A program made the position numbers and the translations under genes. A DNA stretch of 64,000 nt from Escherichia coli (lineage in GTDB: Bacteria > Pseudomonadota > Gammaproteobacteria > Enterobacterales > Enterobacteriaceae): the NCBI RefSeq assembly GCF_024502345.1, contig NZ_JALDNN010000001.1. One strand, given 5' to 3'. Under the pieces are notes generated by a model. The model did not search any database, was not told the DNA's origin, and saw only the letters and a program-made list of their open reading frames with translations. Below are positions 17,176 to 62,232 of the stretch, in pieces (position 1 is the first letter of the stretch; the number at the start of each line of letters is the position of its first letter).

Positions 17176-17206
17176 ACGATATTATTTGCAGTAATTATGT
17201 TATTAA

Positions 17207-23616: not shown

Positions 23617-23845
23617 TGTGGGATGCAAATAAAGTTTCATCCTAACCCTAAAAACAGAGAGAAACGTCGCGCGCTCTCCTATTCATAAAAAATCCCTTTT
23701 ATATCAGTATGTTGTGAGCACTTACACCCGAGACTGGATCGTTTTGCCTTTCATGGGAGAATGATTAAGGGCGCTAAAGTATCATCCTAATTTTCGCCCA
23801 GGCTCGAAAAATACGGTAAATGGTGAAAATAAAGATTCATCCTTT
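23617..23845. repeat. Tn7-like left end with three spaced TnsB-binding-type repeats
   Basis: ATAAAGTTTCATCC (about 23626), TAAAGTATCATCC (about 23776), ATAAAGATTCATCC (about 23829). Confidence 0.7.
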
Positions 23846-42543: not shown

Positions 42544-42634
42544 GCTCCTTGAGAGGACTGATTTGACGAGGCGCCGAAGGTCACGGCGCCTCGCCATTCA
42601 CTTGGTTTTTCTGTAGAGAACAAGCCGATCGGCG

Positions 42635-43204
42635 TCAGCCGTTGATCGGGATCGAGCGGCCCTGCTTGGGCGCACTGGCCTCGCGCTTTTCCATTGTGAT
42701 CGTGAGTACGCCGTTCTTGAAAGCGGCCTTGATCGTGTCCTGGTTGGCATCGGTCGGCAGGTTCAGAGCGCGCTGAAAGCTGCCGTAGGAGCGCTCCACC
42801 CGGTGGAAACCGCCGTCTTTGCTTTCCTGCTCCTGACGCTTTTCACCGCGAACCAGCAGCACGTCGTTGTCGAGCGTGATATGGATGTCTTTTTCCTCGA
42901 CGCCGGGAACCTCCAAAGAAATCTTGTACTGCTTGTCGGTCTCCTGGATGTCCAGCGCCGGCTTCAGCAGGCCCGGCCAGTCCGACGGCCAGCGTGGCAT
43001 GGCCAGCGCCGGAAAGCCGAAGCCTCGAAACGTGTCGTCGAAGAGGCGGTCGATCTCGCGGTGCAATTGCAGGATGGGACTGACGGGCCCACCCGCTACC
43101 GGCAGGTCATTGCGCTGCACCGGCAGCGAGGCAGTGCTCTGTTGTTCTTCCTGCTCCTTCTTGAACCAGTTCCAGGGAGCCAACTTCTTGAAATCAATGT
43201 CCAT
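42635..43204 (-). CDS. Small heat shock protein (Hsp20 family)
   Basis: Start MDIDFKKLAPWNWF... (cat at 43202-43204) after GGAGGTG; alpha-crystallin domain. Confidence 0.85.
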   Translation of the reverse strand: MDIDFKKLAPWNWFKKEQEEQQSTASLPVQRNDLPVAGGPVSPILQLHREIDRLFDDTFRGFGFPALAMPRWPSDWPGLLKPALDIQETDKQYKISLEVPGVEEKDIHITLDNDVLLVRGEKRQEQESKDGGFHRVERSYGSFQRALNLPTDANQDTIKAAFKNGVLTITMEKREASAPKQGRSIPING

Positions 43205-43239
43205 GTCACACCTCCAGAACAAAAATTGAAGACTCTCGC

Positions 43240-43521
43240 TCACTCCGTTTGCCTGCGGCTATGGATAGCGCGCCCAGGCAACACGGGATGTTTCGCTGAC
43301 TTCGGCTGCTCATCTGTACGTATCACCTCCTTCTTTCTGCCTGCTTGGATCTGATCATTGATCCATCGATCGATTTCACTTTGACGAAACCGCCACGTCC
43401 CGCCGACCTTGAAGGCCGGAATCTCCCCGTGCGCGGCGAGCCGGTAGAGCGTCCGCTTGCCGACCTTTAAGTAGGTAGCCAACTCGTCGAGTGTGAAGAT
43501 CGCCTGCTGGCGCGCTGTCAT
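43240..43521 (-). CDS. Helix-turn-helix DNA-binding protein (MerR/excisionase-like), first gene of the heat-resistance island
   Basis: Start MTARQQAIFTLDELATYLKVGKRTLYRLAAHGEIPAFKVGGTWRF (cat at 43519-43521); HTH pattern. Confidence 0.65.
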   Translation of the reverse strand: MTARQQAIFTLDELATYLKVGKRTLYRLAAHGEIPAFKVGGTWRFRQSEIDRWINDQIQAGRKKEVIRTDEQPKSAKHPVLPGRAIHSRRQTE

Positions 43522-44026
43522 ACCACCCCCACAAGTTCCGTCGTCACGCGGCCTCGCCTGAGGAAGTTCTTGCAAGACTTTGCAAGATATTGCGCCTAAT
43601 ATGCCAAAAGTCAAGAGTCAACATCCAGCGATCTGCTGGCCGATTGATGTGACTCAAATCTTCAAGGACGGTATGCCAGGGCGGGCCGGTCCGGCGCAGG
43701 GGACGGTGGGTTGATCGGGACCTTGCGGGCGCCGCCCACGGCCGCAGATCAAACACCGATCCTCACGTTGTAACCGAGCGCCCGCAGCCCCTTGCTCGTG
43801 CGCATGTTCCTTGGCGGAAACTCGTCTGGGCGCGCCCAGCCGACGATTTCCCCGAGGCTGCTCAGGCCAATGTGCGGAATTGCCCAGTCGTCGCTGCGGA
43901 TCGCGTTCCAGAGTCGGGCCGAAAAACCTCCGTTGCCCCAGACAACGTAGTTCAACAGTATCCGTCCTGCCAACACACCTTCCCGACACCGCCGCCGAAG
44001 GCCATGGCCCATCAAGCGGATTTTCC

Positions 44027-44399
44027 ATGCCCCCTCAGCGCCGTACCTACAGCAAATCTTTCAAGGCCCAGGTCATTCAGGAGTGTTCTGAACCCGGTGC
44101 CTCCATCGCAAACATCGCCTTGGGCTACAGCCTCAATGCCAACCTCGTCCACAAATGGATTCGGCTGCATACCCAGAAAACCACGGCTATCCAGCCAGCG
44201 TTCATCCCGTTGCCTTCTCAAATGCTCGGCGCGGGATCGCATGCTCAAGTGCGCTGCTGCGATCATGAGTTTGATCCAGTCGGCCCGTAATAATGGGCAC
44301 GATCCGTATGCCTATCTCAAGGATGTGCTGACACGGTTGCCGACGCAGCGGGCGAGTGAGATTGCAGAGCTGCTGCCGCATAGGTGGCATCCGGCATAG
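44027..44399 (+). mobile_element. IS66-family remnant (TnpA-like N-terminus fused to the last residues of a TnpC-like transposase)
   Basis: MPPQRRTYSKSFKAQVIQECSEPGASIANIALGYSLNANLVHKWIRL... then ...NGHDPYAYLKDVLTRLPTQRASEIAELLPHRWHPA; internal deletion inferred. Confidence 0.5.
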
Positions 44400-44659
44400 T
44401 CGCGCAAGACGGTCTGCCCGCACGCTTACGTTCAACAGCTCAAGCACCGTCCGCCCTTCGCGGGATCGTTGCCGCCAGAGCCACACGCCGAACTTTTCCA
44501 CCTTGTCGTCGCCGGCCTGCGGTCAGTCAGGCAAGCCCAGGTGCTTGTTTTCCTGCTTGATCGCGTGGTCTCGGATCGCGTGCACCCGGGAAACGGCATC
44601 CACGAACTGCCACCATCTCTTAGCTTGGCGGGGTCAAGCCAGCCGGGATGCCCGGACGG

Positions 44660-46497
<1,838 letters not shown>

Positions 46498-46505
<8 letters not shown>

Positions 46506-48000
46506 TCCATCTTCCTATCAATCGAATGAACGCAGTGGTCAGTGGTGCCACCCTGCTTTTTTCCAATCCACAACGCTTTTCCAGCTCCCAGCGCCTAGAC
46601 GTTATGCCTGTCTGTACATCCTTCAGCATCGCTGCAGTCAGGCGACGGATCTGATACTCGCCGACGGACTCGGCATAGCGATCCAGGAAGGTGCAGCAAA
46701 GAGGCAATTGATCGAGACGGTGCTCGACTGATGCCCGATGGGGTAGCTGCTGCAGGAACCAGTTGCGACTCCTGCGCGGAAGGCCCAGGTCTTCTTCGCT
46801 ACCTCTACCAATCCGGATCAGCAGGCGCACCAACCTTATGTCACGCGCTCGCCAGTCGATGTGGCTGTTGTTGCCCTGTCGGCGCTGCCTGACCTGGTTC
46901 GCAACCATCAGCCAGTGTCGGTCATGACGATAGAGCCAGGCGTAACATGCCCCTGCTCCGTCTTGCCTGGCTGCCTTGGCTCCACCGTGATTAGCCAGTG
47001 CTTGCAGCCAAATGGCTCGGTACTGCTGCTTTTGCTCAAACTCAGCAGGGAGCAGCTGCACTGACCGCTCGGAGGCAAGGTCGACCTGGCGAGTCTTCGC
47101 CTCGCTGATCAGCTCGCCAGCATGCTGGCCAGGGCGCAGGCTGGTCCAGACGATCAGATGCTGCAGCGCACTGAATCCCTTGCGATGCTTCCTGAACATC
47201 GCCAACAGCCAAGGTGGAGGCTCTCCGGATGTCAGCAGACCGTTCGCAGCAAGCCAATCCCTTTGATGGGATGCCAGGATCTTCTCCCAGATGACTTCAG
47301 CCCTGACCTGCCGGCCTCGCCTGGCGCCGCACTCTGTAGCCAGGTACCGGTACAGGTTGGTCCAGCGTCCGTAGCCAGGCGATTGCACCTCTTCGAGCGC
47401 CAGCAGCTGCATAGCAGCCTTGGCGAGCCTGATAGCCTCTTCGCCCACGGGACTCACGCGAAGATCACGGGGCAGAAACAGTGGAGAGGCTGTATGAAAC
47501 TCGTGCCGCTGCGCTCGACGGAACGGGATAGGTGAGTTCAGGAGCTGACAGCCATGCTCGGGACAGGCATCTATCCCTTGAATCTGCCAGCTGCGCCGCC
47601 AGTAGGGTTCACCGTAGCGCGCAGCCATATCTTCAAAGCAGATCGGGCAGTAACGCAGCCAATCGGGCCACTTGACCAAGGCCGTCGAGGCCCCAGACAG
47701 ACCAATCGTCGGCCGGTCGGGAGCAAGCATGGCCTGAAAAAGATCGGTACGGCGCTCCGGCGGAATGAAAGGGGCATAGAGCGGGAACAGCGTGTGATTC
47801 AGGATCATGCCTTCCGCATCCAAGCCCGTGTTGTTCGCCAACGCAGTCAGGTGTGTGGGCAGATCGGTGATCGCGGCAACCTTGCTGTCACCGAAAAGCA
47901 TGTGCAGCAAGGTCTTGTGGCTGCCTATCCCCAGATGTACCCGGCACCGGGCAATACCGCTGTAAAGCAGTTCGTCCGGGTAGAGCCTGGGGAAGTACAT
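46498..48000 (-). CDS. tnsD: Tn7 TnsD/TniQ-like target-selection protein
   Basis: 500-aa ORF MYFPRLYPDELLYSGIARC...; zinc-finger-like RYCPICF...CPEHGC; FRKHRKGFSALQHLIVW and YAWLYRHDRHWL blocks. Confidence 0.8.
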
Positions 48001-48001
48001 G

Positions 48002-49612
48002 TCAGCTCGCTCTCAGCAGAGGCCGTAGATCGAGGATCAAGCCAGCCTGCTTGAATCTGTCATAGGCCTCGCTTTCAGGCCCATCGGCATAACGTCGGCG
48101 CAGATCCTCCTCGGATAGGCACCCCCACTCCGTCCGCTTAACTCTGGAAATGCCGGGCCTCTTGGGAGCGTCCTGCGCGAGGTAGGCCGTGGCCTTGTGA
48201 ATCAGGGCCGCCAGCGGGATGTCCGGATTCTCCGCCAACAATTCATCGGCCATGGGAATGGCGATGTCCCTCGGGATTTCCATACCTTCGAGCAGGGCGG
48301 CCAACCGCTTTGCCTTGTCATCAGCCGGAGGGGCCGGTGGTTTAGGTTGGGGGACGCTATCCAGAGAGCGAGTCAGGGTCAGCAACCGTCCCTCGATCTC
48401 TGGCATCAGCAGGTCGTCATATTTGGCGATCAGCTCGGGCCTACCGCTCCGCAAGGCCGCCAGCATCGGATGGACCGGTTTGAACTCGTCCTCGAAAACC
48501 CTGCGCAGCAACAGCGGCTTAATGCACTCGACACCTGTCACTATCGCCCGGATCTGCGCCAGCGCGAACAGCTTGATGACGATGTCCATGACCCCTTGGG
48601 TGAGGTCGTACATCGTAGCCTCCAGTTCATCATCCAGCGGCGCCGCATTTCGCAGCCACTGATACTTCCAAAGCCGCTTCAACAGACGCTTCCAATGCTC
48701 GTCCCGAGGCAACCTATCCCAGCGGATGCTGCCCAACCCGGAGACCCGCCGAGCAGCCCGGAACGTGCGCTGGAAGAACTTGCTGGCCCGGTGGGTGCCG
48801 ACCTGAATGATCGGAACACCGATGGTGTTCACCAGCGACACGAAGAAATTGTGCATTTTTTCGGCACCACCGGAGCGTGCCTCGTTGAGGTTCTGAACCT
48901 CGTCGATGATCAGCACTCCGAGCGTGTGCAGATTGGCCAGCTGGCACATGGATGCCAGCAGACGTTTGGTACCCAGCTTCTTGCGTCCGTGGCTACGGCT
49001 GTAGTGGGTACCCAGGATCTTGTCTACTTCGTTGAAGAAGCTCAGGCACAGCTCATCCAAGTCACCGTCAATTGGGCAGTCGATCTTCAGGTAGACCAGT
49101 TGGGTGATGTCGTAATCAGGGTGATGGAGAGCTTGGGGGTACATGCCCAGAATCCGCTCCAGCGTGCGCGTCTTGCCGCAACCGGAGCAGCCGAACAGCG
49201 ACAGGCTGTTGGCCGTAGAGGAGACACTCTGGTACACCGCCGCATCCAGATCCTCCTCCTCGACACGGCGATAGCCATTCTGCAGGTGCGCATACCAGGC
49301 ACCGCTGGCCGGATTCCGACCGATGTACCCTTGACGGATCATCAGGCTGATCTTGCTCTCCAGCTCCAAGTGATGGCTCAGCGGCTGGAAGAAGCCGTGC
49401 AACAGGCGGGCAATCGCATGTGCCCTGAGCCGACCATCCAGAAGCGCCTCCTGCGGCTCGAAACCGGGAAGCTGCTGCAATAGATCGACCACCTCCTGCA
49501 GATCAGGAATCGGAGGCAATGCGCTGATGAGCGGATTGTCCTGATACTCGGGAAGCTGCTGCTCCTGGTAACGCGCCAGGGGAATGACTCCGCGCTGGAA
49601 TTCTTCAGTCAT
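48002..49612 (-). CDS. tnsC: Tn7 TnsC-like AAA+ transposition regulator
   Basis: 536-aa ORF with Walker A GCSGCGKT and Walker B LIIDEVQNL. Confidence 0.85.
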   Translation of the reverse strand: MTEEFQRGVIPLARYQEQQLPEYQDNPLISALPPIPDLQEVVDLLQQLPGFEPQEALLDGRLRAHAIARLLHGFFQPLSHHLELESKISLMIRQGYIGRNPASGAWYAHLQNGYRRVEEEDLDAAVYQSVSSTANSLSLFGCSGCGKTRTLERILGMYPQALHHPDYDITQLVYLKIDCPIDGDLDELCLSFFNEVDKILGTHYSRSHGRKKLGTKRLLASMCQLANLHTLGVLIIDEVQNLNEARSGGAEKMHNFFVSLVNTIGVPIIQVGTHRASKFFQRTFRAARRVSGLGSIRWDRLPRDEHWKRLLKRLWKYQWLRNAAPLDDELEATMYDLTQGVMDIVIKLFALAQIRAIVTGVECIKPLLLRRVFEDEFKPVHPMLAALRSGRPELIAKYDDLLMPEIEGRLLTLTRSLDSVPQPKPPAPPADDKAKRLAALLEGMEIPRDIAIPMADELLAENPDIPLAALIHKATAYLAQDAPKRPGISRVKRTEWGCLSEEDLRRRYADGPESEAYDRFKQAGLILDLRPLLRAS

Positions 49613-51692
49613 CCTCTTCCTCCTTGAATATCAGGTCACTGAGATCTGGGAAGGCATAATCTTCCTGCTTCTCGCCCCGCAGTGGGATCACCTCGGCTGG
49701 CTTTTCCTGCTGTGCTTTATCCGGTTTGAATGCTGTTTTCTGGCGTTCCTGGCGCTTTTCCTGCTGCTTGTTCTCGCGGATCTGGGTTCCCAGATCCTTC
49801 GTGGTCATACCCGTTTTGAGCGGACTGGCATCCTCTGCCTGGGCAACGATGGACTCGATCTGCTTCAGAAGATTGCCTCTCTCTACCAAAGCTTCCGCCG
49901 CCGCGTTGGTATCGCTACGCCGTTCCTCTCTGGACAGCAGCCAGACATCCCAGAAGGTCATCCCCCTGAAGCGTCGACTGCGGTCGGCAAGATCGCAAAC
50001 CCAGTAGTCCTTGAGACTATTGGACGGCCGCAGGTAGATGTGGTCGGCGCTACGCGGATCGTATGCGACCGTTACCCCTGTCGGCCGGCGCCCCTGGCCT
50101 CGGTGAAACCAACCCTCCCTGATTGCTTCCTGGCAGGTGTAGAAGCAGCCGAACAGTCTGATTCCCAGCTCCGAAACCGTGGCCGACTCATGGGGCAAGA
50201 GATTTATCCGCACCAGCTCCTCGGGCGCAGTACGTAACCGGCCGGTCAAGTTGGCCAAGCCCCAGTTCCACAGCATGACCGGGATGGCTGGCAGATCGCC
50301 CGGCATACCAGAGGTTCTGTCGTATTTGCTCAAGGTATGAAAGTTGTTGTGGTAGAGGATGCCGGCAATGATGATCTGGGTGAACTCGGGCAAGGTCAGA
50401 CTGGCATCAAGTCTGTAGTCGTGGCCACCCCGCTTCCGGCTGGTGGTGTCCTCGACCACACCGCTGGCATAGGGCTTGAAACGCTCCTGCACCGTCCGGA
50501 AATAACGCTCGACGATCCCCTTGGCATCTCCTCGCCTGGCCGGTGCATTCTCGATGCGAACGCCGAAGGCTTGGGAAAATGCTTCCACCTTGGTGCCATT
50601 CAGTTCGCCCTTATCGGCCAGCACCACATCCGGCAAGCCTTTGACCGGCCAGTCGCTGGCATCGATCTCCACGCTATACTGGCGGCAATACTCAACCTTG
50701 TCGGCGACCGTGTTGGCCAATGCCACCATGGCACTGACCCAGGAAGGTCCCTCGAATCCGACGTACATACCAACGACCATGCGGCTGAACACGTCGATCA
50801 CCATGTAAACGACAGGCCTGCCGACGATAAGGCTGCGATCATGTTCTGAAACCAGATAGATATCGGCGATGGTGGCATCGATCTGGTAGCGGTATCCTGG
50901 CCCCAGTGCCTCGGTCGTCGATGTACTGCTGAGCGGTCGGAAGTCCTTGGCAAAATCCACTGCGGACACCCTGCATGGCAAGGTGTCGGTGAAGTGATAT
51001 TCGCGCCCATAGAAGTAACGGAACTGCCCCAATGTAGGCAGTTCGGAGGTCGGCAGCTCCGTCAGAACAGCACGGAGCAGATTCAGCCCGGCGGCGTAGG
51101 CATCAGGAATGGACGGATGTTTTTCCTTGAGCAAACGTTCCTCGATGACCCGGCGAAAAATGCGCTCGATGTCCGGCGTGACATTGCTCCCTTTCCCCTC
51201 CATCACCACTCTGGGCCTGCCCAGCTTGGCCTGGTTCGGCTTTCTGCGCTTGCCACGGGCGCCCGAGTTGACATAGTCCGGCAAGAGGGCATTCCTGCAC
51301 ATGCCTCGCTGCCAGTAGCGCCTCAGTAACCTATACACCGTCTGATTGGTGACACCATGGCGCTCCATGATGCCTCTGACAATGAGCCCTCTGGGGCGCC
51401 GCACGAAAAGCTGGGGGTTGTGCACAAAATCCGCCAGCATTCCCCAAGCTTCATCACGCTTCTGCTGATCAAGGGAACCTTCCTCAACCTCCCGTAGGAC
51501 TGTTTCCTCGAAGGGATCGGCAATGCTCTCCAGCTCCCGCTCCATGATCAGACGCTCCAGCTCTACAATCGATATCGGTTCGGGCAACGCCGTGTCCGAA
51601 TCGATATCGATCCAGATTGCCTGCTCGGTACCGGACCAAAGCAGGCGCTTTCGCAGTTCCCCCATCCGGAACACCTGATTAACGGGCAACAC
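49605..51692 (-). CDS. tnsB: Tn7 TnsB-like DDE transposase
   Basis: 695-aa ORF with YQIDATIADIYLV, VLADKGE and GIVERYFRT blocks matching the Tn7 TnsB catalytic region. Confidence 0.9.
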   Translation of the reverse strand: MLPVNQVFRMGELRKRLLWSGTEQAIWIDIDSDTALPEPISIVELERLIMERELESIADPFEETVLREVEEGSLDQQKRDEAWGMLADFVHNPQLFVRRPRGLIVRGIMERHGVTNQTVYRLLRRYWQRGMCRNALLPDYVNSGARGKRRKPNQAKLGRPRVVMEGKGSNVTPDIERIFRRVIEERLLKEKHPSIPDAYAAGLNLLRAVLTELPTSELPTLGQFRYFYGREYHFTDTLPCRVSAVDFAKDFRPLSSTSTTEALGPGYRYQIDATIADIYLVSEHDRSLIVGRPVVYMVIDVFSRMVVGMYVGFEGPSWVSAMVALANTVADKVEYCRQYSVEIDASDWPVKGLPDVVLADKGELNGTKVEAFSQAFGVRIENAPARRGDAKGIVERYFRTVQERFKPYASGVVEDTTSRKRGGHDYRLDASLTLPEFTQIIIAGILYHNNFHTLSKYDRTSGMPGDLPAIPVMLWNWGLANLTGRLRTAPEELVRINLLPHESATVSELGIRLFGCFYTCQEAIREGWFHRGQGRRPTGVTVAYDPRSADHIYLRPSNSLKDYWVCDLADRSRRFRGMTFWDVWLLSREERRSDTNAAAEALVERGNLLKQIESIVAQAEDASPLKTGMTTKDLGTQIRENKQQEKRQERQKTAFKPDKAQQEKPAEVIPLRGEKQEDYAFPDLSDLIFKEEEDD

Positions 51693-52506
51693 TGCTCAGC
51701 TCCTGATGCATTTGATGAGAGTTGGCAACCAGGTCTTTCGGCTTCAGCTCCCGGTAAGGAGTGTCAAGATCGAAAAGGAAACAGTGCCGGGCCAGCAACT
51801 GGCGTAGCCAATAGAGCGCCTGACCGGCCTCCAGCTGGCCGGAGGTATCCAGTCCTTGGGCAATAGCGGTCAGCTTCCGGTCTGGGTGACGCTGAAACTC
51901 GAGCAGAAACAGCTGCTGGTAATGGGCGAGATCGTCCTGAGCGATGTCGCCTTCAGCATGGGCAGGATAGAGCCATTGGATATTGGCAAATGCCACCTTG
52001 GATACCTCGCGCTCCGTAACGATGACCCAGGGAATACCTTTTTCCTGCCAGTAGCGCCTTTCAAGCTCAAGCCTCTCGATAACTTCAGGCTTCTGCAGGT
52101 CGGTACTGTACTTGGCCTGAATCGCGATGCTCGGGCGCTGAGGATCTTCGAAATCCACCAGAAAGTCGCTGGTCAGTACCTGCGGGGTACCCTTGTAACA
52201 ACCGTGGGGCAGGCCAAGCTCCTCGGCGATGCGCACCGTATCTTCGACCCGCATCGGAAACTGTTCACGGATATCGGTGACATGGGGAGACCGATCCAAG
52301 GTCAGGAAGATGGCCAGTTCAAGATCGGATAGAAGATGGTGTAAACGCCGGGTCTTGCTGCCAGGCAGGCGGTGGGAGCGACCCAGCGAGGACACGTCCC
52401 TTGTGTAGATGAACGGCTTGTAGTCTGATCCCTGGCCTTGACCACGCCCGTCCTTGAGCCTTCTATCGATCTGGGCCTGGGTCAGCCCCTTGAATGTTCC
52501 AGACAT
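51679..52506 (-). CDS. tnsA: Tn7 TnsA-like endonuclease
   Basis: 275-aa ORF MSGTFKGLTQAQIDRRLKDGRGQGQGSDYKPF...HHLLSDLELAIFL...TSDFLVDF...AIQAKYS; sits just inside the right transposon end. Confidence 0.9.
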   Translation of the reverse strand: MSGTFKGLTQAQIDRRLKDGRGQGQGSDYKPFIYTRDVSSLGRSHRLPGSKTRRLHHLLSDLELAIFLTLDRSPHVTDIREQFPMRVEDTVRIAEELGLPHGCYKGTPQVLTSDFLVDFEDPQRPSIAIQAKYSTDLQKPEVIERLELERRYWQEKGIPWVIVTEREVSKVAFANIQWLYPAHAEGDIAQDDLAHYQQLFLLEFQRHPDRKLTAIAQGLDTSGQLEAGQALYWLRQLLARHCFLFDLDTPYRELKPKDLVANSHQMHQELSSVAR

Positions 52507-52562
52507 GAGAAAGCCTGCCCCCGCTGTGTCGATGACCTCAACATAGCGGATGCAGGCTCAGA

Positions 52563-52626
52563 ATGAAACTTTATTTATACGGATGATACTTTATTTATAC
52601 GGATGAACCTTTATTTGCATCCCACA
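52563..52626. repeat. Tn7-like right end with three contiguous TnsB-binding-type repeats
   Basis: Reverse complement reads TGTGGGATGCAAATAAAGGTTCATCC-GTATAAATAAAGTATCATCC-GTATAAATAAAGTTTCATTC. Confidence 0.75.
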
Positions 52627-52703
52627 CATTTTACTTAAGGCATAAGCGGTAGAGTTGAGTGATAACCCTTCCATAATTTCATTTTCTAACACACTAATTT
52701 AAT

Positions 52704-53069
52704 TTAGTGTGAATTTCCACTTTTAGTCATTATCGCTATCGCTTCATCGATAGTCGGTATTGTAAAGAGAGAATTCTCTCTACAATCCTTGCGAATAACC
52801 TTCCTGTTTTTTTGAACAGAAATATTTTCGCACCAGGCTAATGTCCCGGTGAAATGCTTTTCTTCCATCCTCATATCTAGAAAAGCAAGTCGATCATTAA
52901 GGGATTGCATATCTTCAGTTACAGTAGAGGGACCTGATTCTAACAGTTCCAGACGGCTTTCCACATCAGCAACCTTGCCTTTAACCTGTGAGACGTCTTC
53001 TGCTAACTTTTCATGTCTGTGGATAGTATCAGCAAGTGCTCGTGAGTTTTGGGCGAATATCTCAGCCAT
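52704..53069 (-). CDS. Hypothetical protein, unknown function
   Basis: 121-aa ORF just outside the Tn7-like right end; coiled-coil-like N-terminus; may be a gene fragment. Confidence 0.3.
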   Translation of the reverse strand: MAEIFAQNSRALADTIHRHEKLAEDVSQVKGKVADVESRLELLESGPSTVTEDMQSLNDRLAFLDMRMEEKHFTGTLAWCENISVQKNRKVIRKDCRENSLFTIPTIDEAIAIMTKSGNSH

Positions 53070-53562
53070 TTGCGCTAAGGCAGATCCTTTCGCTTCTGGT
53101 GGAGGTGGGTATATATACCTAATGCTTAGTCAACGACAGTATGACCTCATGGAATAACCATTTTTGAAAGTGCTCACCAGCTGCGCTTCGGTCGCTCGAC
53201 ATGACTCAATACAAACCTAGTTGGAGCTATAACTTTCGCCGTAGGAATTAATGACCATTATTTGGCCAGCATCAACAGGCTGGCCATCTAAAGTAACAAG
53301 TCGTTTAGTTGCACGCTCTGGAAAGATAATATCCTTTGACTGCCTATCTTCTTCAATGTCCTTTAGTACCTTAGCCAAGGAGGTTTTCAATGTTCCATGG
53401 GGCGCATACAAAGAGCACACGCCGTCAATGCTATTAATTCTGGTAAAGTCTAACTACTCCACCAGTTTATTGATGCTGTAACAGTTCTCCAGATCCAGTC
53501 CAAGTTTCATTTCGACTTCTTTTTCAAATCGTTCATTTCAAAAAACTGTGAATTAACACAGC

Positions 53563-55216
53563 TCACGCATACCTGCTTGAAAACTCGTCCATCGAATTAG
53601 ATACCGTAAAATTCACCTCATCACCCAGTGCTTCAAAATGTGCATAACCACATTTTATTTTGGCATTTTCCTCCGGACGTCGTTCCACCGAGAAAAGCGT
53701 GCTTTTGGTTTCGACAACGAAATAGAGCTTTTCTTTTCCGTCCTTTTCGATCAGCACCGCCCAGTCGGGGTTGTAACCGCCTAATGGGGTATCGATTTTG
53801 AACCAACTAGGGAGTTTGGCGTAAAGTTTGATATCCTCGTTTCGCTCGAAGGCCGAGGCGAATTCCAATTCGATATCAGAGTCGTAAACCACGTGGTCGA
53901 AGACGGACTTCGTCATACCAGCGGTAGTTGGCGACCTTGTCGATAAAAAACAGGCTCAGCACCTTAATGCCCTGTGGGCGCAGGCGCATTTCTTTATCGA
54001 GATGCTCTTCAATGGTTTTGCGGATCTGCAGGCGTTTAAATTCATCCGGATCAACTTCTCCCAAGGCCTGACCCAGTTTCAGAATATCGGGCTTACTGGT
54101 AAAGCTGATGTATTCATTGCCCTGTTCGCAGTAGATGTCATCAATAATGTAGCCGTCATATACATCGCGGCCACCGCTGTACCTGGCATCCAGCAAATCC
54201 GCTCCGCTGGTCACCGTGACTTCCTTGCGCTTAATGCTGCCATTCTTCAGGCGAGCATCAATTTCGATTTTGGCACTGATCGGGCTTTTTTTATTGTTCA
54301 CACTGACCAGCTTGATAAAGGCCTTATTGTGGCCGTCCTTAACCTCAATGCCTGCCACTTCAATCTGCTTAACCAGTTTTTGCTCGTAGGCATCAACTGA
54401 ATCAAGCTTGTAGAGCATATGGTGCTTTTCCACATGGGTAGCTGAATAACGCAGTGTACACATGGGATTAAGCGAGGCGATGGCCTCTTTACTCTTATCT
54501 GTGGTGTCAACACTCTGCGGCTCATCGACAATCACAATTGGGTTGGTTTGCTGGATAAATTCGATCGGCTTGGCACCGGTCATCCGGTCGTGTGCCCGGT
54601 GAATGATGTTGGCTTTGTTCTCTTGCTCCGGGTCGCTAAAGCTTTTCCGGAAGGCATCGATATTGATGACCATGATCTGAATGTCAGGGCTGGTCGCAAA
54701 GTTACGCACATCCGACAGCTTACTGGAATCGTAGGTGAAATAGTCGAAGGCAACGTTTTCGTACAGCTCTTTAAAATGAGTCGCCGTAATTTCCAGTGAC
54801 TTCTGCACTCCTTCTTTAATGGCGATGGACGGCACCACGATAATAAACTTGGTAAAGCCATAGAGCCGGTTCATTTCGAAAACTGTACGCAGGTAAACAT
54901 AGGTTTTACCCGTTCCGGTTTCCATTTCCACGGTTAAGTGAATGCCGTATTTCGAGTCAAATGACTCTGACGGCGCGAGGCCATTTTTCAGCTGTATTTT
55001 GCGGATATTGGCATGGATGTCTTCATCCAGCAGGCGTAGGCGGTTACCAATACCCAGGGTATCTTCCTGAATACCATGAAACAGCGAGCCTTCTTCCCAG
55101 GAATGCAGCGGTGCTACCGTAAAGTTGGTCTGGCAGATTTCCTGGCCGGCGAATACGCCCGTTACTGACTCAATCGCATCACGCTGATAGCCAAGGTGAT
55201 AGCTGTAACTCTTCAA
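53563..55216 (-). pseudogene. Type III restriction Res-like helicase/endonuclease, frameshifted and internally deleted
   Basis: 446-aa ORF with helicase motif I (EMETGTGKTYVY), IVIVDEPQ and KVLSLFFIDKVANYR, overlapping a 117-aa ORF with a PD-(D/E)xK-like core (GGYNPDWAVLIEKDG...LYFVVETKS); the expected C-terminal helicase motifs are missing. Confidence 0.65.
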
Positions 55217-55700
55217 TGACCCACTTTGCTTGATCCGCTCTGTTTATGCGCTTGTCCGCCAGGCAGATAGCCAGTTGTTCTTTGTCGTGTTGTTTTTCGC
55301 GTACGTTTGAATCCGAATCGCCAGTGCCCTCTGTGCCTTTGTTTTCAGCGTGCACAAAGAAAATTACTAATGGGTAAGGTATCGCCCTGTTGATCAGCTG
55401 ACCAATTCGTTCTGCGCTTTTGGTATTGCTTAATTCCACGTGCAGAAAGGCCAGCTCACCATAGTCGCGCAGGTCGTCACTAAAAGGCGCGATATTGATG
55501 GTGCTGGGCTTTAGGGTGTAGAGCCAACGGATTTTATCAACATCGTCCTTCAGAGCCTTTTTGTCTTTAGCGTCCAGGTCGGCGTGCTCCTGAAACATCT
55601 TTTTGAACAGGGGCTTATTGAGCACACAGCTATTGGGCACGTTCAAGCCTTCCAGAAAGGCTTCGAATTGTGGCAAGCCTAACCTCATATCAGACATCAC
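55179..55700 (-). CDS. Hypothetical protein coupled upstream of the Res-like gene
   Basis: 173-aa ORF whose stop overlaps the Res-like start; no family recognised with confidence. Confidence 0.45.
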   Translation of the reverse strand: MMSDMRLGLPQFEAFLEGLNVPNSCVLNKPLFKKMFQEHADLDAKDKKALKDDVDKIRWLYTLKPSTINIAPFSDDLRDYGELAFLHVELSNTKSAERIGQLINRAIPYPLVIFFVHAENKGTEGTGDSDSNVREKQHDKEQLAICLADKRINRADQAKWVIEELQLSPWLSA

Positions 55701-56337
55701 GCTCTCCTTGACCTTCTGTTCCCTGAGTAACGGCTGTCAATATCAGGTAGGACACCACCATAAAGTCTTCAATGCCCTGACTGGAGGTGGCGGTAAGTAC
55801 AGTACCGCCTTTGGCAAACAGGCTTTCAATGCCTTTTTCTTCGCTCTTCCCGGCAATGCTATCTACAGCGACAGCTAATAGGTGCTGAAAGTGGCTCATA
55901 TCACACCCGTGGCGTGTCATGCGGTTAACTTCGGTGATGGCGGGTTGATCGGGCACTTTGTGCTTAAAGGCTTCACGCTTGAGCAGATCGAGTATCTTTT
56001 TACTTTGGGTGAAGTTCAGCTCAACTACAGTGCTGCCTTCGGCATCAGCGGTCACGTAGATCAGGAAGTAAGGTGCCAGCGGGTAATTATCATCTACCTG
56101 AACCGCTTCTTTACCGCTGCGGATATTCTTCAGGCAGAAGATGACGCCGGGTTTGATGCCATCGGCGACCATATCTTCGTCAATGCTGACGGCGGCATAC
56201 AGGCCTAGCGGTGTTTGCTCCAGCGTTGCGAGACGGGCCTTATCGTTCATGTAGCCTGACAGATCCATGCGGAAGTCATTGAGGGTAAGGTCGGTAATGG
56301 ATACCGGATGGGGCGTGGAGGATATGGTAGCAACCAT
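55690..56337 (-). CDS. Hypothetical protein, first gene of the Res-like module, possibly 5'-truncated
   Basis: ORF overlaps the start of the 173-aa gene; the upstream in-frame extension runs into unrelated GC-rich DNA and no convincing RBS precedes Met at 56337. Confidence 0.4.
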   Translation of the reverse strand: MVATISSTPHPVSITDLTLNDFRMDLSGYMNDKARLATLEQTPLGLYAAVSIDEDMVADGIKPGVIFCLKNIRSGKEAVQVDDNYPLAPYFLIYVTADAEGSTVVELNFTQSKKILDLLKREAFKHKVPDQPAITEVNRMTRHGCDMSHFQHLLAVAVDSIAGKSEEKGIESLFAKGGTVLTATSSQGIEDFMVVSYLILTAVTQGTEGQGERDV

Positions 56338-56835
56338 GATGCGCTGTCTGCCGGACCGCGCCACCAGCCCAGTAGCGACACAGTTGCACGGGAGGCTCTG
56401 CACGGAGCCGGTAAAGTCGCAGGCCCGTGACGGCTTCGGTGAGGCGGTGGGGCGGGTGTTCGATACGGCAGAGTCATCGTCATTCCTGCCTGCGCCGCTG
56501 AAGACGGTGATACGTACCGTGCGTGATGCGGTGGTGTCTGTAGCCCGCGCGGTCTGGGACTGGATCTTCTTCTGAATGAGTAAAAGGTCATCAGCGTTGT
56601 AGTGGATGGCTCTGTTTATTCACAGCCTGGTGGATGATTATTTTAAAGCAGACACAACCTGTCCTGACCAGCAAAAGATATCACCAGTCATAAGCGCGTC
56701 ACCACTGCCGACGTTGCATCCACGCAGTCTTCTCGCGCCAGGCGTTTCGCTACGTATCACGGACATAACCTGTCAGTCTCATCCTTTACAGTAATACCTT
56801 CTTAATTAATCAATTACCAAACACGGAGATAATAC

Positions 56836-57159
56836 ATGTCTCAGACTGAGCGTCGTTATGACCGCCTGTCTGTCCGGCTTTCTCTGATTATCAGCCGTCT
56901 GCTCGCGGGTGAAACGCTGAATATGCGCAAACTGGCCGCTGAGTTTGGCGTCTCGGAGCGTACCCGCCAGCAGTCAGCGGCTGTGGCGTCACAATACACC
57001 AACGTTGCTACAGAGGATGACCAGAACACACATTTTCGCCTGGTGGTCCGGGATACCGACGGCAGGATGCACTGGCGGGCCAGGAACTTTGAGCCGGAGG
57101 CGGGTTACTGGCTGAACCGCTATCTCACCAGCGATGGCATTCGCAGAGCCACAACGTAA
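56836..57159 (+). CDS. Hypothetical protein with a helix-turn-helix-like N-terminus
   Basis: 107-aa ORF ...[29 protein letters not shown]...; possibly a fragment. Confidence 0.35.
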
Positions 57160-57278
57160 TACATACTACCGTTACCTTCAGCATACCACCCGCAACGATG
57201 TTATAAACAGAGCTAGGCCACACCTCCTTCGGGAAGTGTGGCCTTTCGTATTTTTATCGAGAGAATAAGGAGTTATCC

Positions 57279-58097
57279 ATGCGACTCGCCAGCCGCTTTG
57301 GCCGTATCAATCAGATCCGCCGCGACCGCCCCTTAACCCATGAAGAATTAATGCAGGTTGTTCCCAGCGTCTTCGGGGAAGGTAAGCACGTGTCCCGTTC
57401 AGACCATTACAGCTACATACCGACCATTACCCTGCTGGAGAACCTGCAGCGTGAAGGATTCCAGCCATTCTTTGCCTGCCAGACCCGCGTCAGGGACCAG
57501 AGCCGCCGTGAGCATACGAAACATATGCTGCGCCTGCGTCGCTCCGGGCAGATAACCGGTCAGCAGGTGCCGGAAATTATCCTGCTCAATTCGCATGACG
57601 GTTCGTCCAGTTACCAGATGTTGCCGGGGTATTTCCGTGCCATCTGTACCAACGGTCTCGTCTACGGGCAGTCATTTGGCGAGGTGCGAGTGCCACACCG
57701 GGGAAATGTCGTGGAGAAAGTGATTGAAGGCGCTTACGAAGTCCTCGGTGTGTTCGACCGGGTGGAAGAGAAGCGTGATGCGATGCAGTCGCTTTTACTC
57801 CCGCCACCGGCACAACAGGCTTTTGCCAGAGCCGCGCTGACGTACCGCTTCGGGGAAGAGCACCAGCCGGTGACGGAAGCGCAGATACTGACACCCCGCC
57901 GCTATAAAGACCGTCAGGATGACCTGTGGTCAGTTTTTAATCGGTGCCAGGAGAACCTGCTCAAAGGGGGGCTGCCAGGACGTACTGCCAAAGGCAAACG
58001 CAGCCATACCCGCGCGGTGAAAGGCATCGACGGCGACGTTAAGCTCAACCGGGCACTCTGGGTGATGGCGGAAAAACTGCAGCAGGCGCTGAGCTGA
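57279..58097 (+). CDS. DUF932-family protein (YfjQ/YafZ-like) of a CP4-like prophage remnant
   Basis: 272-aa ORF at the position this family occupies in CP4-type elements; assignment from recalled family resemblance. Confidence 0.6.
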   Translation: MRLASRFGRINQIRRDRPLTHEELMQVVPSVFGEGKHVSRSDHYSYIPTITLLENLQREGFQPFFACQTRVRDQSRREHTKHMLRLRRSGQITGQQVPEIILLNSHDGSSSYQMLPGYFRAICTNGLVYGQSFGEVRVPHRGNVVEKVIEGAYEVLGVFDRVEEKRDAMQSLLLPPPAQQAFARAALTYRFGEEHQPVTEAQILTPRRYKDRQDDLWSVFNRCQENLLKGGLPGRTAKGKRSHTRAVKGIDGDVKLNRALWVMAEKLQQALS

Positions 58098-58364
58098 TGC
58101 CACCGCTGCCTGATAACGCCCACCCGGTCGCCATTTATCCTGCCCCCTGGAGAACAACCCCGGCAGCCGCTCCATCTCCGATGACGACCTGTGCGCCTAT
58201 GCTCACACCTTCTTTATCGTCCCGGTGAACTCAGTTTCTGCCGGTTAAGTCTCGCTGACGGCCACTGGCCCTCACACTGTGATGAAGACGGCTATGCGCA
58301 GTCATGTCCGTCACTCCGATTGAACCAGTATCCCCAACACAATGAATGAAAGAGGAAAAACAAC

Positions 58365-58835
58365 ATGACCGATAACACTCTGCCACTGTTCACACCCGCA
58401 GCAGATGCTCTTGCTGCGGCTCAGCATCAGATTATCGCTATACCGGTAACCGATGAGAACCGCATCAGCTTCTGGCCGCAGCACTTTGGCAGCATTCCGC
58501 AGTGGATAATCCTTGAGCCGACCATCTTCGCGTGGATGGACCGCTTCAGCACGGACTACAACGGCGGCATCTGGAATTTTTACACGCTGAGCAACGGCGG
58601 TGCGTTTATGGCCCCGGAAGTGGAGAACGATGAACTCTGGTCGCTGTTTAACACGATGAACGGCAACGGCGGTGACATGAGTGCTGAAGCTGCAGGGATT
58701 GCGGTCTGTCTGATGGCTTACAGCCACCATGCCTGCCGTACCGAATGCGACGCCATGACGGAGCACTACTACCGCCTGCGGGACTACGCGCTCAACCACG
58801 CGGAATGCAACGCCATCATGCACATCATCGACTGA
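58365..58835 (+). CDS. Antirestriction protein (KlcA/ArdB family; YfjX/YafX-like)
   Basis: 156-aa ORF with family-typical blocks ([25 protein letters not shown]). Confidence 0.7.
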
Positions 58836-58846
58836 GGTCAGCCGCT

Positions 58847-59326
58847 ATGGAGCAACAGTTACCGTTGTTTGCCCGTGAATTAGCCCCTGCCGACCTGCAG
58901 ACAGTCAGGAAAGCCTTATCTCTGTTGAAGTGCCAGCTACGTGAAACCGGGGCGTCATTTACTTCCAGCCATGCCGTCCGCGACTGGCTGCGCCTGCAGC
59001 TCGCGTCACTGGAGCGGGAAGAGTTTACCGCGCTCTTTCTCGATAACCAGCATCGCCTGATAGCCCACGAAACGCTATTTACCGGCACCATCAACCATAC
59101 GCAGGTCCATCCCCGCGAAGTGGTGAAGGCCGGTCTGAAGCATAACTGCGCCGCTGTCATTGTCGCCCATAGCCATCCCTCCGGGGAGGCTGAACCCAGC
59201 AAGGCAGACCGTCAGGTCACTACGCGTATTCAGCAGGCGCTGGACCTGGTTGATATCCGCCTGCTGGACCACCTGGTGGTCGGCGGCATGGAGATCACCT
59301 CGTTTGCAGATCGTGGCTGGCTGTAG
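58847..59326 (+). CDS. RadC-like JAB/MPN-domain protein (YeeS/YfjY/YkfG family)
   Basis: Start [12 protein letters not shown]... (ATG 58847); JAMM motif [19 protein letters not shown]. Confidence 0.85.
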
Positions 59327-59346
59327 CACAACAGGAGAATAACCCA

Positions 59347-59568
59347 ATGAAAATTATCAGTAAACGTCAGGCTATGGCGATATACCGCCAGCATCCGCAG
59401 TCCCGGTTGTTTCCCTTCTGCACGGGTAAATACAAATGGTCTGGCAGCATCTGCCACTACGCCGGGCAGGAGGTTCAGGATATCAGCGGTGTGCTCGCGG
59501 TCTTCGCTGAACGCCGTCAGAACCGCAACGGCCACTATGTCGTATTACGCAGCGTCACGCTGAATTAA
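59347..59568 (+). CDS. DUF987-family small protein (YeeT/YkfH-like)
   Basis: 73-aa ORF between the radC-like gene and the antitoxin gene, as in CP4-type elements. Confidence 0.65.
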   Translation: MKIISKRQAMAIYRQHPQSRLFPFCTGKYKWSGSICHYAGQEVQDISGVLAVFAERRQNRNGHYVVLRSVTLN

Positions 59569-59591
59569 CACACGTTTAAGGAAGGTTAAAA

Positions 59592-59951
59592 TTGTCGAAT
59601 AAAACACCGATAGTAAACCACGATGTCACTGAACCCTGGTGGGGGCTTAAACGCAGTATCACGCCCTGTTTTGGCGTACGGCTGGTGCAGGCGGGCAACT
59701 GTCTGCATTATCTCGCTGACCGGGCCAGCATCACCGGACAGTTCAGCGACGCGGATTTACGGCATCTCGACCAGGCATTTCCACTGCTGCTCAAACAGCT
59801 TGGACTGATGCTCACCAGCGGTGAACTCACTCCCCGCCATCAGCACTGTGTCACGCTCTATGCAAAAGGGCTGACCTGCGAGGCCGACTCCCTCGGCTCG
59901 CATGGTTACGTATACCTGGCGATTTATCCGACACCAGCGGCAACCGCGTAA
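59592..59951 (+). CDS. CbeA/YeeU-family antitoxin (type IV TA)
   Basis: TTG-start 119-aa ORF with PWWGL...[19 protein letters not shown]...[21 protein letters not shown] blocks. Confidence 0.8.
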
Positions 59952-60001
59952 AGCTTCTTACTACTTACCCTCGTTTTACCCATCAACAAAGAGATCCCAC
60001 T

Positions 60002-60379
60002 ATGCAAACCCAACCACTATCCTCAACGCAGGAGGCTACATCACGCCCGTCACCGGTGGAGATCTGGCAACAGCTTCTGAGCCACCTGTTGGATCGTCAC
60101 TACGGTCTGACGCTTAACGACACGCCGTTTGGCAACGACGGTGTGATTCAGGAGCATATCGACGCCGGTATATCACTGTGCGACGCCGTGAATTTTATTG
60201 TGGAGAAGTACGATCTGGTGCGCATCGATCGTCACGGTTTCAGTACAGAAACACAGTTGCCGCGTCTCACCAGTATCGATATTCTCCGCGCCCGCAAAGC
60301 CACCGGGTTGATGACTCGCAACGATTACAGAACGGTGACCGACATCACCACCGGTAAATACCGTGGGGGGCATCGATGA
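60002..60379 (+). CDS. CbtA/YeeV-family toxin (type IV TA, cytoskeleton-targeting)
   Basis: 125-aa ORF ...[30 protein letters not shown]...[17 protein letters not shown]...[18 protein letters not shown]. Confidence 0.8.
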
Positions 60380-60867
60380 AGTTATCCCTGACGGTAGAAG
60401 CCGACGCCATCAACGTTCTGGCCCTGAATGCGGGCCGAATCGCTGTGGATATTGACGGCATTGAACTGGCTGCGCTGATCGATGTGGTCTGTGATAACGG
60501 TTATTCCCTTCGCGTTGCTGACTCCCCCGGAAAGCTGGTCGTTGAAGATCCGCTTCCACCCGTCGCCCGCGTTAATGGCATCCAGTGCAGTACCGCGCAT
60601 ATTACGGAGGAAGACAACGCTCTGCTGTTTACTCTTTCACACCAGAATGAAGACTTTGGTGAGTCGGAATGGATTAGTTACACCGGGTCGGGTTATCTGC
60701 TCCACCTGGGTGCCTGGTCATTTCCGGTCTTACGCCTCAAACGTCTCGGTCTGTCGAAAGCCTGCCGTCGGTTAGTAGTGACGCTTATCCGTCGCTACGC
60801 CGTTGGCATTGTTCATCTGGATGCCTTTGGCGCAGTGCTGCCGGGCTTTGACATTTTCGACTGGTAA
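60376..60867 (+). CDS. Hypothetical protein translationally coupled to the CbtA-like toxin gene
   Basis: 163-aa ORF whose ATG overlaps the toxin stop (ATGA); family not recognised. Confidence 0.4.
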
Positions 60868-60898
60868 ATCTTCTCACCAATAAGCACAGGATATTCTC

Positions 60899-61102
60899 AT
60901 GGAGAAATTAACCACCGAAGTGGCTCTCAACGTTCTGATTGACTGGCTGCAGGACAACATCGATTGTGGGAACATGATTATTTTCGACAACGACGAAGAC
61001 AACACCGATTCAGCAGTGCTGTTGCCCTGGATTGAACGTGCGCGTCAGGACGTTCGCGATCTCCGTCATCTTCAACTTCTGCGACAGACCAGTACAAATT
61101 AA
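60899..61102 (+). CDS. Hypothetical small acidic protein
   Basis: 67-aa ORF MEKLTTEVALNVLIDWLQDNIDCGNMIIFDNDED... Confidence 0.35.
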   Translation: MEKLTTEVALNVLIDWLQDNIDCGNMIIFDNDEDNTDSAVLLPWIERARQDVRDLRHLQLLRQTSTN

Positions 61103-61182
61103 CCACCGAACAGTACTCATCACTTACTCATAATCGCCAGCCCTCACCGGCTGGCGCTTTGCTTTATATAAGGAACGAAATA

Positions 61183-62034
61183 ATGTCAGAGCTTACTCTC
61201 ACCAAACCCGAAGTATTAACCGGCCACACCGACGTGATTTGCTCCACCAGCATTGAGCGTATTGTCACCGGACGTAATGCCGCACTGGCGCAGATTGAAG
61301 CGCTGATACAACAACTTGACACTATTTCAACGCTGACCCGCAGTATCGGGGGAAAAACCGCGTTGGACTGGGCTATGAAGCAGGATTTCCGTTGTGGCTG
61401 CTGGCTGATGGAGAAACCAGAAGCAGCGCTGAAGGCCATTACCCGTAATCTCGATCGCAGCATATGGCGAGACCTGATGAAGAAGTCGGGCATGCTTTCG
61501 CTCATGGATGCTCAGGCTCGTGAGCAGTGGTACAACAGCCTGGAAAAGGACGATATTCCCGCTGTCAGTGAAGCCAATATCCTCAGTACGTTTGAGCAGT
61601 TGCACCAGAGCAAAGGCGAGGTGTTTGAGCGTGGGGCGATCAACGTGTTTAAAGGGCTGAGCTGGGATTTTAAGAGCAATAGCCCATGTAAGTTCGGGAA
61701 AAAGATCATCGTTACGGGACTGGTCAAATGTGATCGGTGGGGATTTGGGCTTAACTGGGGCTGGCAACGTGATCGGCTTGCAGACCTTGAACGCATGCTG
61801 ATGCTTCTTGATGGCAAACCGGTTCCCGACAACCGCGCTGACGTTACCCGTCGTCTCAGCGATCATATCCATGCTAATCGGCACAGCAATCGTTACGAGG
61901 ACGAGATGTTTGCGATCAAGTACTTTCAGAAGGGGACAGCGCATATCATCTTCAAACGACCAGAGCTGGTTGATAAGCTGAACGACATCATCGCCCGACA
62001 CTATCCGGGAGCACTGCCAGCGAGAAGAGAGTGA
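61183..62034 (+). CDS. DUF4942-like prophage protein
   Basis: Start MSELTLTKPEVLTGHTDVI... (ATG 61183); last gene before aspV. Confidence 0.55.
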   Translation: MSELTLTKPEVLTGHTDVICSTSIERIVTGRNAALAQIEALIQQLDTISTLTRSIGGKTALDWAMKQDFRCGCWLMEKPEAALKAITRNLDRSIWRDLMKKSGMLSLMDAQAREQWYNSLEKDDIPAVSEANILSTFEQLHQSKGEVFERGAINVFKGLSWDFKSNSPCKFGKKIIVTGLVKCDRWGFGLNWGWQRDRLADLERMLMLLDGKPVPDNRADVTRRLSDHIHANRHSNRYEDEMFAIKYFQKGTAHIIFKRPELVDKLNDIIARHYPGALPARRE

Positions 62035-62111
62035 GTTGTCCGATGCTATCTCAGGTAAGCCAGCGCAAGCCGGACGGTAATGGCATACTGGATGGCATAC
62101 CGAAAAAAACA

Positions 62112-62147
62112 GATATAAAAAAGGCCATGCTAATCAATAGCATGGCC
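62112..62147 (-). terminator. Rho-independent terminator of aspV
   Basis: Hairpin ggccatgc...gcatggcc followed on the reverse strand by a T-run (aaaaaa on the forward strand), 8 nt past the tRNA 3' end. Confidence 0.55.
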
Positions 62148-62155
62148 TAGAATAG

Positions 62156-62232
62156 TGGCGGAACGGACGGGACTCGAACCCGCGACCCCCTGCGTGACAG
62201 GCAGGTATTCTAACCGACTGAACTACCGCTCC
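62156..62232 (-). tRNA. aspV: tRNA-Asp (anticodon GUC)
   Basis: Reverse complement reads GGAGCGGTAGTTCAGTCGGTTAGAATACCTGCCTGTCACGCAGGGGGTCGCGGGTTCGAGTCCCGTCCGTTCCGCCA (77 nt with CCA). Confidence 0.97.

Follow-up and report, generated by a model that had tools for sequence, protein, structure and literature searches.

How does an integrative element come to rest against a transfer RNA gene with its toxin, and not its integrase, at the tRNA end? The question is raised by the aspV locus of Escherichia coli contig NZ_JALDNN010000001.1 (assembly GCF_024502345.1), from which we analyzed one stretch of 64,000 nucleotides (nt), hereafter the window. In this window, a run of genes of the kind found in CP4-type elements, here termed the tail and including a CbtA/CbeA-type toxin–antitoxin (TA) pair, ends next to the tRNA-Asp gene aspV. 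The initial annotation, made from the letters of the sequence, had described a CP4-like prophage remnant at 56340-62112 whose layout implied decay or rearrangement. Comparison with related islands makes it highly probable that the window holds the tRNA-proximal end of a CP4-6-like island at aspV, which lost its integrase and distal attachment (att) site by a deletion reaching the end of a Tn7-like transposon, and in which the cargo is eroded and the tail is intact. Gene families were assigned by Pfam profile search, with further scans against NCBIfam, PHROG and Rfam and a PDB sequence search. Counts of tails and integrases refer to a survey of 5426 complete E. coli genomes, and deletions were sized against the aspV island of strain VREC0761 (NZ_LR536430.1).

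The earlier description stands in part. The tail genes do lie between 56340 and 62112, and they do belong to the remnant of a CP4-type island. The limits themselves have to be moved: position 56340 falls inside a fragment of a GTPase gene, the remnant stretches left as far as 23617, well past that position, and on the right it is bounded by the att core (62150-62169). Nor does the word prophage hold except as a historical name, phage structural genes being absent from the window as well as from its relatives. No gene with a phage structural, packaging or lysis function is annotated in the elements of the relatives, and the PHROG matches of the tail proteins fall only into families of unknown function, anti-restriction and DNA metabolism. 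Given the missing integrase, the window holds a remnant rather than a complete CP4-type element.

Orientation of the island at aspV

The integration target aspV (62156-62232, minus strand) was identified by ARAGORN as a tRNA-Asp gene with a GUC anticodon and matched the Rfam tRNA model at 67.7 bits. Its neighbours dnaQ and rnhA are those found in K-12; the island lies on the side of its 3′ end. The att core GAATAGTGGCGGAACGGACG comprises the 3′-terminal 14 nt of aspV and the 6 nt that follow, and is present in the window in a single copy. Just downstream of aspV, also on the minus strand, there is a terminator-like hairpin followed by a T-run (62122-62148). This hairpin is supplied by the element and takes the place of the native aspV terminator region of K-12, the flank of which differs here; the window does not contain the native flank.

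The closest model for this arrangement is CP4-6, inserted at thrW in K-12, which has the same architecture and orientation. Starting from thrW, it presents ykfI (toxin), yafW, ykfH, ykfG, yafX, ykfF, ykfB, yafY, yafZ and ykfA, each encoded on the strand opposite to thrW; that is, genes for toxin, antitoxin, DUF987, RadC, antirestriction, DUF905, IrmA-like, lipoprotein, DUF932 and GTPase proteins. Its integrase gene intF is located at the far end, 34 kb off, followed closely by 60 bp that repeat the thrW 3′ end. The CP4-6 proteins are 60-81% identical to those of the window. The two elements differ in target (thrW versus aspV), in the length of the att repeat (60 bp versus 20 bp in the aspV family) and in the integrase, that of VREC0761 and IntF being unrelated at blastp E < 1e-3. 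After the toxin gene, CP4-6 has only a pseudogene, whereas the window has DUF5983, DUF957 and DUF4942 genes. CP4-6 retains its integrase and distal repeat, both of which the window copy has lost, and reportedly can excise (PMC5371832).

VREC0761 and ABWA45 (NZ_CP022154.1) also carry the element of the window at aspV, with tail DNA 98.6-99.9% identical to that of the window, the same Tn7-like heat-resistance insertion and the same right flank. In both strains, a 402-aa tyrosine integrase (WP_016239817.1) is encoded at the yafV-side end, on the strand of the tail. In VREC0761, the strain in which the distal 20-bp repeat was found, the 20-mer of the att core is repeated directly 176 bp upstream of the integrase gene, and beyond this repeat the native K-12 aspV-downstream flank resumes (99.2% identity over 251 bp). 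A direct repeat bordered by native flank is what simple site-specific integration leaves behind when an element inserts in this orientation. The window holds the tRNA-proximal junction; the distal repeat, missing from it, is seen in VREC0761. In the survey, the tail was joined to aspV–dnaQ in 81 of the 5426 genomes and the integrase was detected in 41; in 12 further genomes that occur among the matches listed for both, tail and integrase share a strand, with 27-33 kb from integrase to aspV. The proximal half of the CP4-6-type polarity is seen in the window itself, and the distal half in VREC0761, ABWA45 and these 12 genomes.

The initial annotation had read the toxin end beside the tRNA as a sign of rearrangement: the integrase would originally have been beside aspV, and an inversion or another rearrangement would have brought the toxin end to the tRNA. 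Many tRNA-borne islands do carry their integrase next to the tRNA or transfer-messenger RNA (tmRNA) gene, including K-12 CP4-57 (ssrA-intA ... yfjZ-ypjF), and a near-identical tail segment exists in a CP4-57-type element of strain 873.10. Elements of this type share the tail gene order with the window, but their polarity is opposite, with the integrase at the tRNA/tmRNA end and the toxin distal. Against a rearrangement, the toxin end of CP4-6 is also at the tRNA with intF distal, the VREC0761 repeat is direct and not inverted and is accompanied by the native aspV-downstream flank, and the 12 surveyed genomes have one and the same orientation. Taken together, these observations leave a rearrangement extremely unlikely, the layout that had suggested it being the normal one in CP4-6 and in the VREC0761-type relatives. 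Since CP4-6 and the relatives carry the integrase distally, none is to be expected beside aspV, which is where the initial annotation would have looked for one. In the aspV island family, the TA-bearing tail adjoins the tRNA, and an integrase missing from that end says nothing on rearrangement; the far end is the place to look.

The original element is best explained as an integrative island that inserted into the aspV 3′ end by means of a P4-like integrase. From the distal side, its order would have been the distal att repeat, integrase, regulators and cargo, GTPase, and the genes from a YfjR-like regulator through DUF905. It would have continued with DUF932, antirestriction, RadC, DUF987, antitoxin, toxin, DUF5983, DUF957 and DUF4942 genes, followed by the tRNA gene on the opposite strand.

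Loss of the integrase end

No integrase was found in the window by tblastn with three P4-type integrases, namely that of the relatives and K-12 IntA and IntF (best E-value 0.29), in agreement with the initial annotation. The Gp2-family, YfjI-family and AlpA-like genes of the relatives likewise gave no tblastn match in the window. The initial annotation had proposed looking for a direct repeat of the aspV 3′ end elsewhere in the island; no second copy exists in the 64-kb window, even with three mismatches allowed, and a direct-repeat search across the island returned no att-like repeat.

At its left end, the remnant starts with a Tn7-like transposon of 29 kb (23617-52626, minus strand), which is bounded by the ends TGTGGGATGCAAATAAAG of the TGT...ACA type. 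It encodes tnsABCDE (44883-52506, minus strand), and its cargo is a ClpK/sHsp20/FtsH/YfdX/Trx/HtpX/DegP-type heat-resistance locus with a GC content of 58-67%. In VREC0761, the Tn7-like element is located inside the aspV island and is flanked by a perfect 5-bp target duplication, CATTT. The right flank in the window is as in VREC0761; the left flank reads TTCAC and the duplication is lacking. This left flank is the interior of a DUF4123 adaptor gene from a type VI secretion system (T6SS) remnant, and comparison with the relatives identifies the point of fusion between this gene and the Tn7-like left end (23616-23618) as a deletion junction. Given that the left flank differs and is not duplicated, the deletion spans the distal boundary of the element; it appears to have ended exactly at the Tn7-like left terminus, removing the integrase end. 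Judged by the relatives, the lost segment would have comprised the remaining part of the T6SS remnant, the distal att repeat and the integrase gene, together with the Gp2-family, YfjI-family and AlpA-like genes, one hypothetical gene and a fragment of YfjJ. With the integrase and the distal att repeat deleted, the element cannot excise by site-specific recombination. CP4-44 of K-12 is likewise without an integrase and unable to excise (PMC5371832). The aspV locus is here a fixed, non-excisable composite of a T6SS remnant, a Tn7-like heat-resistance transposon, eroded restriction/helicase cargo and an intact tail.

Several points weigh against this account. The T6SS/Tn7-left junction (23616/23617) is contained in none of the complete E. 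coli genomes, JGI metagenome contigs scanned for an exact 42-mer did not yield it, and an exact-protein look-up of the 56-aa open reading frame (ORF) across the junction returned no record; the route of integrase loss rests on one assembly and on comparison with relatives. A deletion that ends at the Tn7-like terminus could be a transposon-end-mediated event, the product of recombination between two copies, or a coincidence. A scan for promoters and terminators gave counts that did not surpass the shuffled controls, the aspV terminator hairpin being the one informative match. Moreover, that chromosomal CbtA/CbeA pairs act in addiction is assumed; what the literature describes are stress and biofilm phenotypes (PMC5371832).

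The transposon itself offers a few further observations. In VREC0761, tnsA is split and annotated as a pseudogene (16192-17020 of the compared stretch), whereas in the window it is an intact ORF of 275 aa (51679-52506). TnsA-defective Tn7 transposes replicatively, and the state of tnsA could bear on a deletion ending exactly at the transposon terminus. An IS21 element sits inside the transposon, and the segment from clpK-to-tnsA up to the right end (39500-52626) has copies with 100% identity on large plasmids and in other chromosomes. Our literature search found no paper linking aspV with the locus of heat resistance, and in the Tn7 literature the term locus of stress tolerance was absent among the matches listed.

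Erosion of the cargo

Between the transposon and the tail, the cargo on the minus strand (52627-56304) is reduced to a hypothetical gene, fragments of the type III restriction gene res, a DUF4391 fragment and a helicase fragment. Alignment with VREC0761 revealed four deletions, each with a short microhomology at its junction: 1376 bp at 53908-53911 (CTTC), 2375 bp at 55188-55189 (TA), 4479 bp at 56302-56304 (TAC) and 2266 bp at 56961-56965 (TACCC). They sum to 10,496 bp and are packed into 3 kb (53908-56965). The initial annotation was right in that the element has decayed. The 1376-, 2375- and 4479-bp deletions ruin res and remove the mod methyltransferase gene, part of the DUF4391 gene and most of the gene for a 1088-aa helicase, as well as a group II intron remnant and the P-loop half of the GTPase gene. 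They inactivate the type III restriction-modification system and the DUF4391/helicase gene pair. VREC0761 and ABWA45, in contrast, keep the integrase, Gp2-family, YfjI-family and AlpA-like genes and an intact type III system, all missing from the window, along with the DUF4391, helicase and GTPase genes and those from the WYL regulator through DUF905, which in the window are lost or cut.

Two remnants absent from the initial annotation mark the passage from cargo to tail. The 4479-bp deletion left a YfjP/YkfA-type GTPase gene as a 3′ fragment of about 90 codons (about 56302-56575, plus strand), without its P-loop half. The 2266-bp deletion took the WYL domain of the regulator, a hypothetical gene, the YfjS/YafY lipoprotein gene, an IrmA-family gene and the start of the DUF905 gene. 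What remains is an in-frame fusion ORF of 107 aa (56836-57159, plus strand), in which residues 1-43 of a YfjR/WYL-type helix-turn-helix (HTH) regulator are joined to residues 13-77 of a DUF905 protein.

These junctions bear on the question of whether the assembly can be trusted, as the real genome might contain the integrase and its cargo, with the region having been collapsed or mis-joined. Five deletion junctions in 33 kb are unusual, and the T6SS/Tn7-left junction recurs in no independent assembly. The other four junctions, however, are all present in three independent public assemblies (ENA ERZ27268145, GCA_001484085.1 and GCA_050022275.1), which are collinear with the window at 99.97-99.99% identity over 11-12.4 kb. 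Deletion states in between are seen in two further public assemblies, a series suggestive of decay by steps in a single lineage. In addition, the HTH::DUF905 fusion is widespread, its exact protein being indexed in 100 blocks of a public collection, microhomologies of 2-5 bp are too short for assembler mis-joins, and two relatives likewise have no integrase, namely C 236-04A, where the element lies next to IS1, and ATCC 8739. We therefore consider an assembly artefact very unlikely. The possibility that the four deletions are unique or artificial had been entertained on the ground that the top 25 matches among complete genomes aligned in two pieces; it was dropped given that the configuration and the fusion protein are found in public assemblies.

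Among complete RefSeq genomes, the fusion junction is present in one only, that of strain 873.10, in a CP4-57-type tandem island at another locus (16077-16400 of the compared stretch). The fusion junction is identical in its arrangement and 99.3% identical to that of the window over 411 bp, but the tails are 93% identical overall; tail segments have thus evidently been exchanged between paralogous islands in a mosaic fashion.

The conserved tail and its toxin–antitoxin pair

Pfam profiles confirmed every tail gene named by the initial annotation, each at the position given there, on the plus strand, at full length and without a frameshift, with E-values across the tail from 1e-17 to 1e-69. The order GTPase, DUF932, antirestriction, RadC, DUF987, antitoxin, toxin is kept, the GTPase gene as a fragment only. 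Nine intact tail proteins are 100% identical over their full length to proteins of ABWA45 annotated by the NCBI Prokaryotic Genome Annotation Pipeline, and RefSeq already has annotations for all nine. The tail is thus genuine but ordinary, as identical proteins and near-identical DNA are public with the same annotations. What our analysis adds is a correction of the polarity and of the route of integrase loss, of little importance beyond correct annotation.

The tail starts with a DUF932 gene of the YafZ/YfjQ family (57279-58097, plus strand; 272 aa; Pfam 2e-49), the product of which is 80-81% identical to YafZ and YfjQ. It is followed by an antirestriction gene of the YafX/LfgA family (58365-58835, plus strand; 156 aa; PF03230, 2e-38), which also matches a PHROG anti-restriction family at 5e-53. 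Next comes a RadC-like JAB gene of the YkfG/YeeS/LfgB family (58847-59326, plus strand; PF04002, 2e-44; TIGR00608), its start being taken from the annotation of the relatives; RadC models were the only ones to match in the NCBIfam scan. Its translation is 59-60% identical to the K-12 paralogues and keeps the JAB metal-binding motif H-x-H-P-x6-S-x2-D. One of these paralogues, LfgB, is reportedly a protease cleaving MqsA (PMC10846083). The DUF987 gene of the YeeT/YkfH family (59347-59568, plus strand; Pfam 2e-34; 71% identical to YkfH) precedes the TA pair. Beyond the pair and its third gene, there is a small DUF957-type gene not listed by the initial annotation (60899-61102, plus strand; 67 aa), the product of which had no match in the Pfam copy searched but is identical to an ABWA45 protein annotated as DUF957. 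The last gene of the element encodes a DUF4942 protein (61183-62034, plus strand; 283 aa; PF13708, 6e-69), identical to that of ABWA45 and weakly matching a PHROG DNA methyltransferase family (4e-16). The PDB sequence search found no relatives for the toxin, DUF5983 or DUF4942, and the literature search found essentially nothing on DUF4942 or DUF5983. An Rfam scan of 52-64 kb at E ≤ 0.1 returned tRNA only, with neither an isrC-type small RNA nor another RNA element.

As the initial annotation had it, neither the TA pair nor the antirestriction gene is damaged; their products are identical to their ABWA45 counterparts. The type IV antitoxin, of the CbeA/YeeU family (59592-59951, plus strand; 119 aa; PF06154, 1.6e-50), starts with a TTG codon preceded by AAGGAAGG. 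It is 75% identical to K-12 CbeA and matches the solved structures of YeeU and YfjZ at 1e-41 to 1e-55. Directly downstream on the same strand, after a 50-bp spacer, lies the gene for the CbtA-family toxin (60002-60379, plus strand; 125 aa), which covers positions 1-112 of the 112 in PF06755 (1.2e-50) and shares 69% identity with K-12 CbtA and 60% with YpjF and YkfI. Alignment with the K-12 toxins showed that it retains R15 and F65. Substitution of F65 abolishes the interaction with FtsZ in all three K-12 toxins, and R15 is a determinant of CbtA for MreB (PMC5624674). Toxins of the CbtA type inhibit the polymerization of FtsZ and MreB, and their antitoxins work on these targets and not on the toxin, which defines the type IV class; such pairs sit near the attachment sites of P4-like cryptic prophages (PMC5371832). 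By analogy, the toxin of the window would bind FtsZ and MreB and so block division and elongation of the cell, and the antitoxin would counteract it by acting on FtsZ and MreB instead of binding the toxin. Toxicity and neutralization are assigned on this likeness to the K-12 pairs. The pair would most plausibly penalize loss of its segment, as in other mobile elements, and may in this way stabilize it.

The third gene (60376-60867, plus strand) encodes a DUF5983 protein of the YeeW family (163 aa; PF25638 and PF19419; N-terminal part 1e-29, C-terminal part 3e-17). The initial annotation called it translationally coupled to the toxin gene, and the toxin stop and the DUF5983 start do overlap in an ATGA (60376-60379). 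In K-12, cbtA and yeeW have the same 4-bp overlap, and the CP4-44 segment cbeA-cbtA-yeeW contains the TA alleles closest to those of the window. CP4-44 differs in that its yeeW is cut to 64 aa, whereas the DUF5983 gene of the window is of full length; it also has flu and yeeR, has no antirestriction or DUF932 gene in the segment, and occupies another chromosomal site. It seems improbable that the full-length, translationally coupled DUF5983 protein acts as a third component modulating the CbtA/CbeA pair and that, at the same time, the HTH::DUF905 fusion is a working neo-protein. If this were true, the pair would belong to a three-gene TA system, and studies in K-12 would have missed the role of DUF5983 because yeeW is truncated there.

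The contrast between tail and cargo is sharp: the adjacent 13.5 kb have been reduced to 3 kb while the nine tail genes stayed intact. In ATCC 8739 (NC_010468.1, 3716000-3764000), a tail 97% identical to that of the window is also found at aspV, next to a wholly different cargo, a pco/sil copper and silver resistance cluster with many insertion sequence elements. The tail appears to outlast its cargo in several lineages. One explanation, which would add to the deletion history proposed here, is that the tail forms a selected module serving anti-restriction or anti-defence when a new host is entered, RadC/LfgB-type protease signalling or TA responses to phage or stress, and that it survives erosion of its surroundings for this reason. 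The occurrence of tail segments in elements at different loci fits with selection, as do the reported cleavage of MqsA by LfgB and the finding that deletion of a toxin or antitoxin in K-12 alters oxidative-stress resistance and biofilm formation (PMC5371832). On the other hand, the TA pair may preserve its neighbourhood merely by penalizing deletions that remove the antitoxin, with no benefit to the host, and the DUF4942 gene of ATCC 8739 is frameshifted, so the tail is not immune to decay. We regard selection on the module as possible but, on balance, doubtful. The stepwise deletion series in public assemblies, with its surviving TA and antirestriction tail, illustrates from nature what kind of DNA a TA pair might keep in place.

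Outside the island, the right part of the window contains aspV, dnaQ and rnhA, and the left part, up to about 16994, core genes running from dinB via fadE and ivy to yafV. The whole interval from yafV to aspV is accessory DNA, and its K-12 counterpart holds only yafT-yafF. Between yafV and the island, the T6SS-1 remnant (16995-23616) comprises a DUF2859 gene, tle1, a DUF3304 immunity-type gene and the truncated DUF4123 adaptor gene. The phospholipase effector gene tle1 is interrupted by an IS5 insertion (21247-22303), and the region of the remnant also contains a 210-nt direct repeat (16987-17196 and 18907-19116), the two copies of which are 81% identical.

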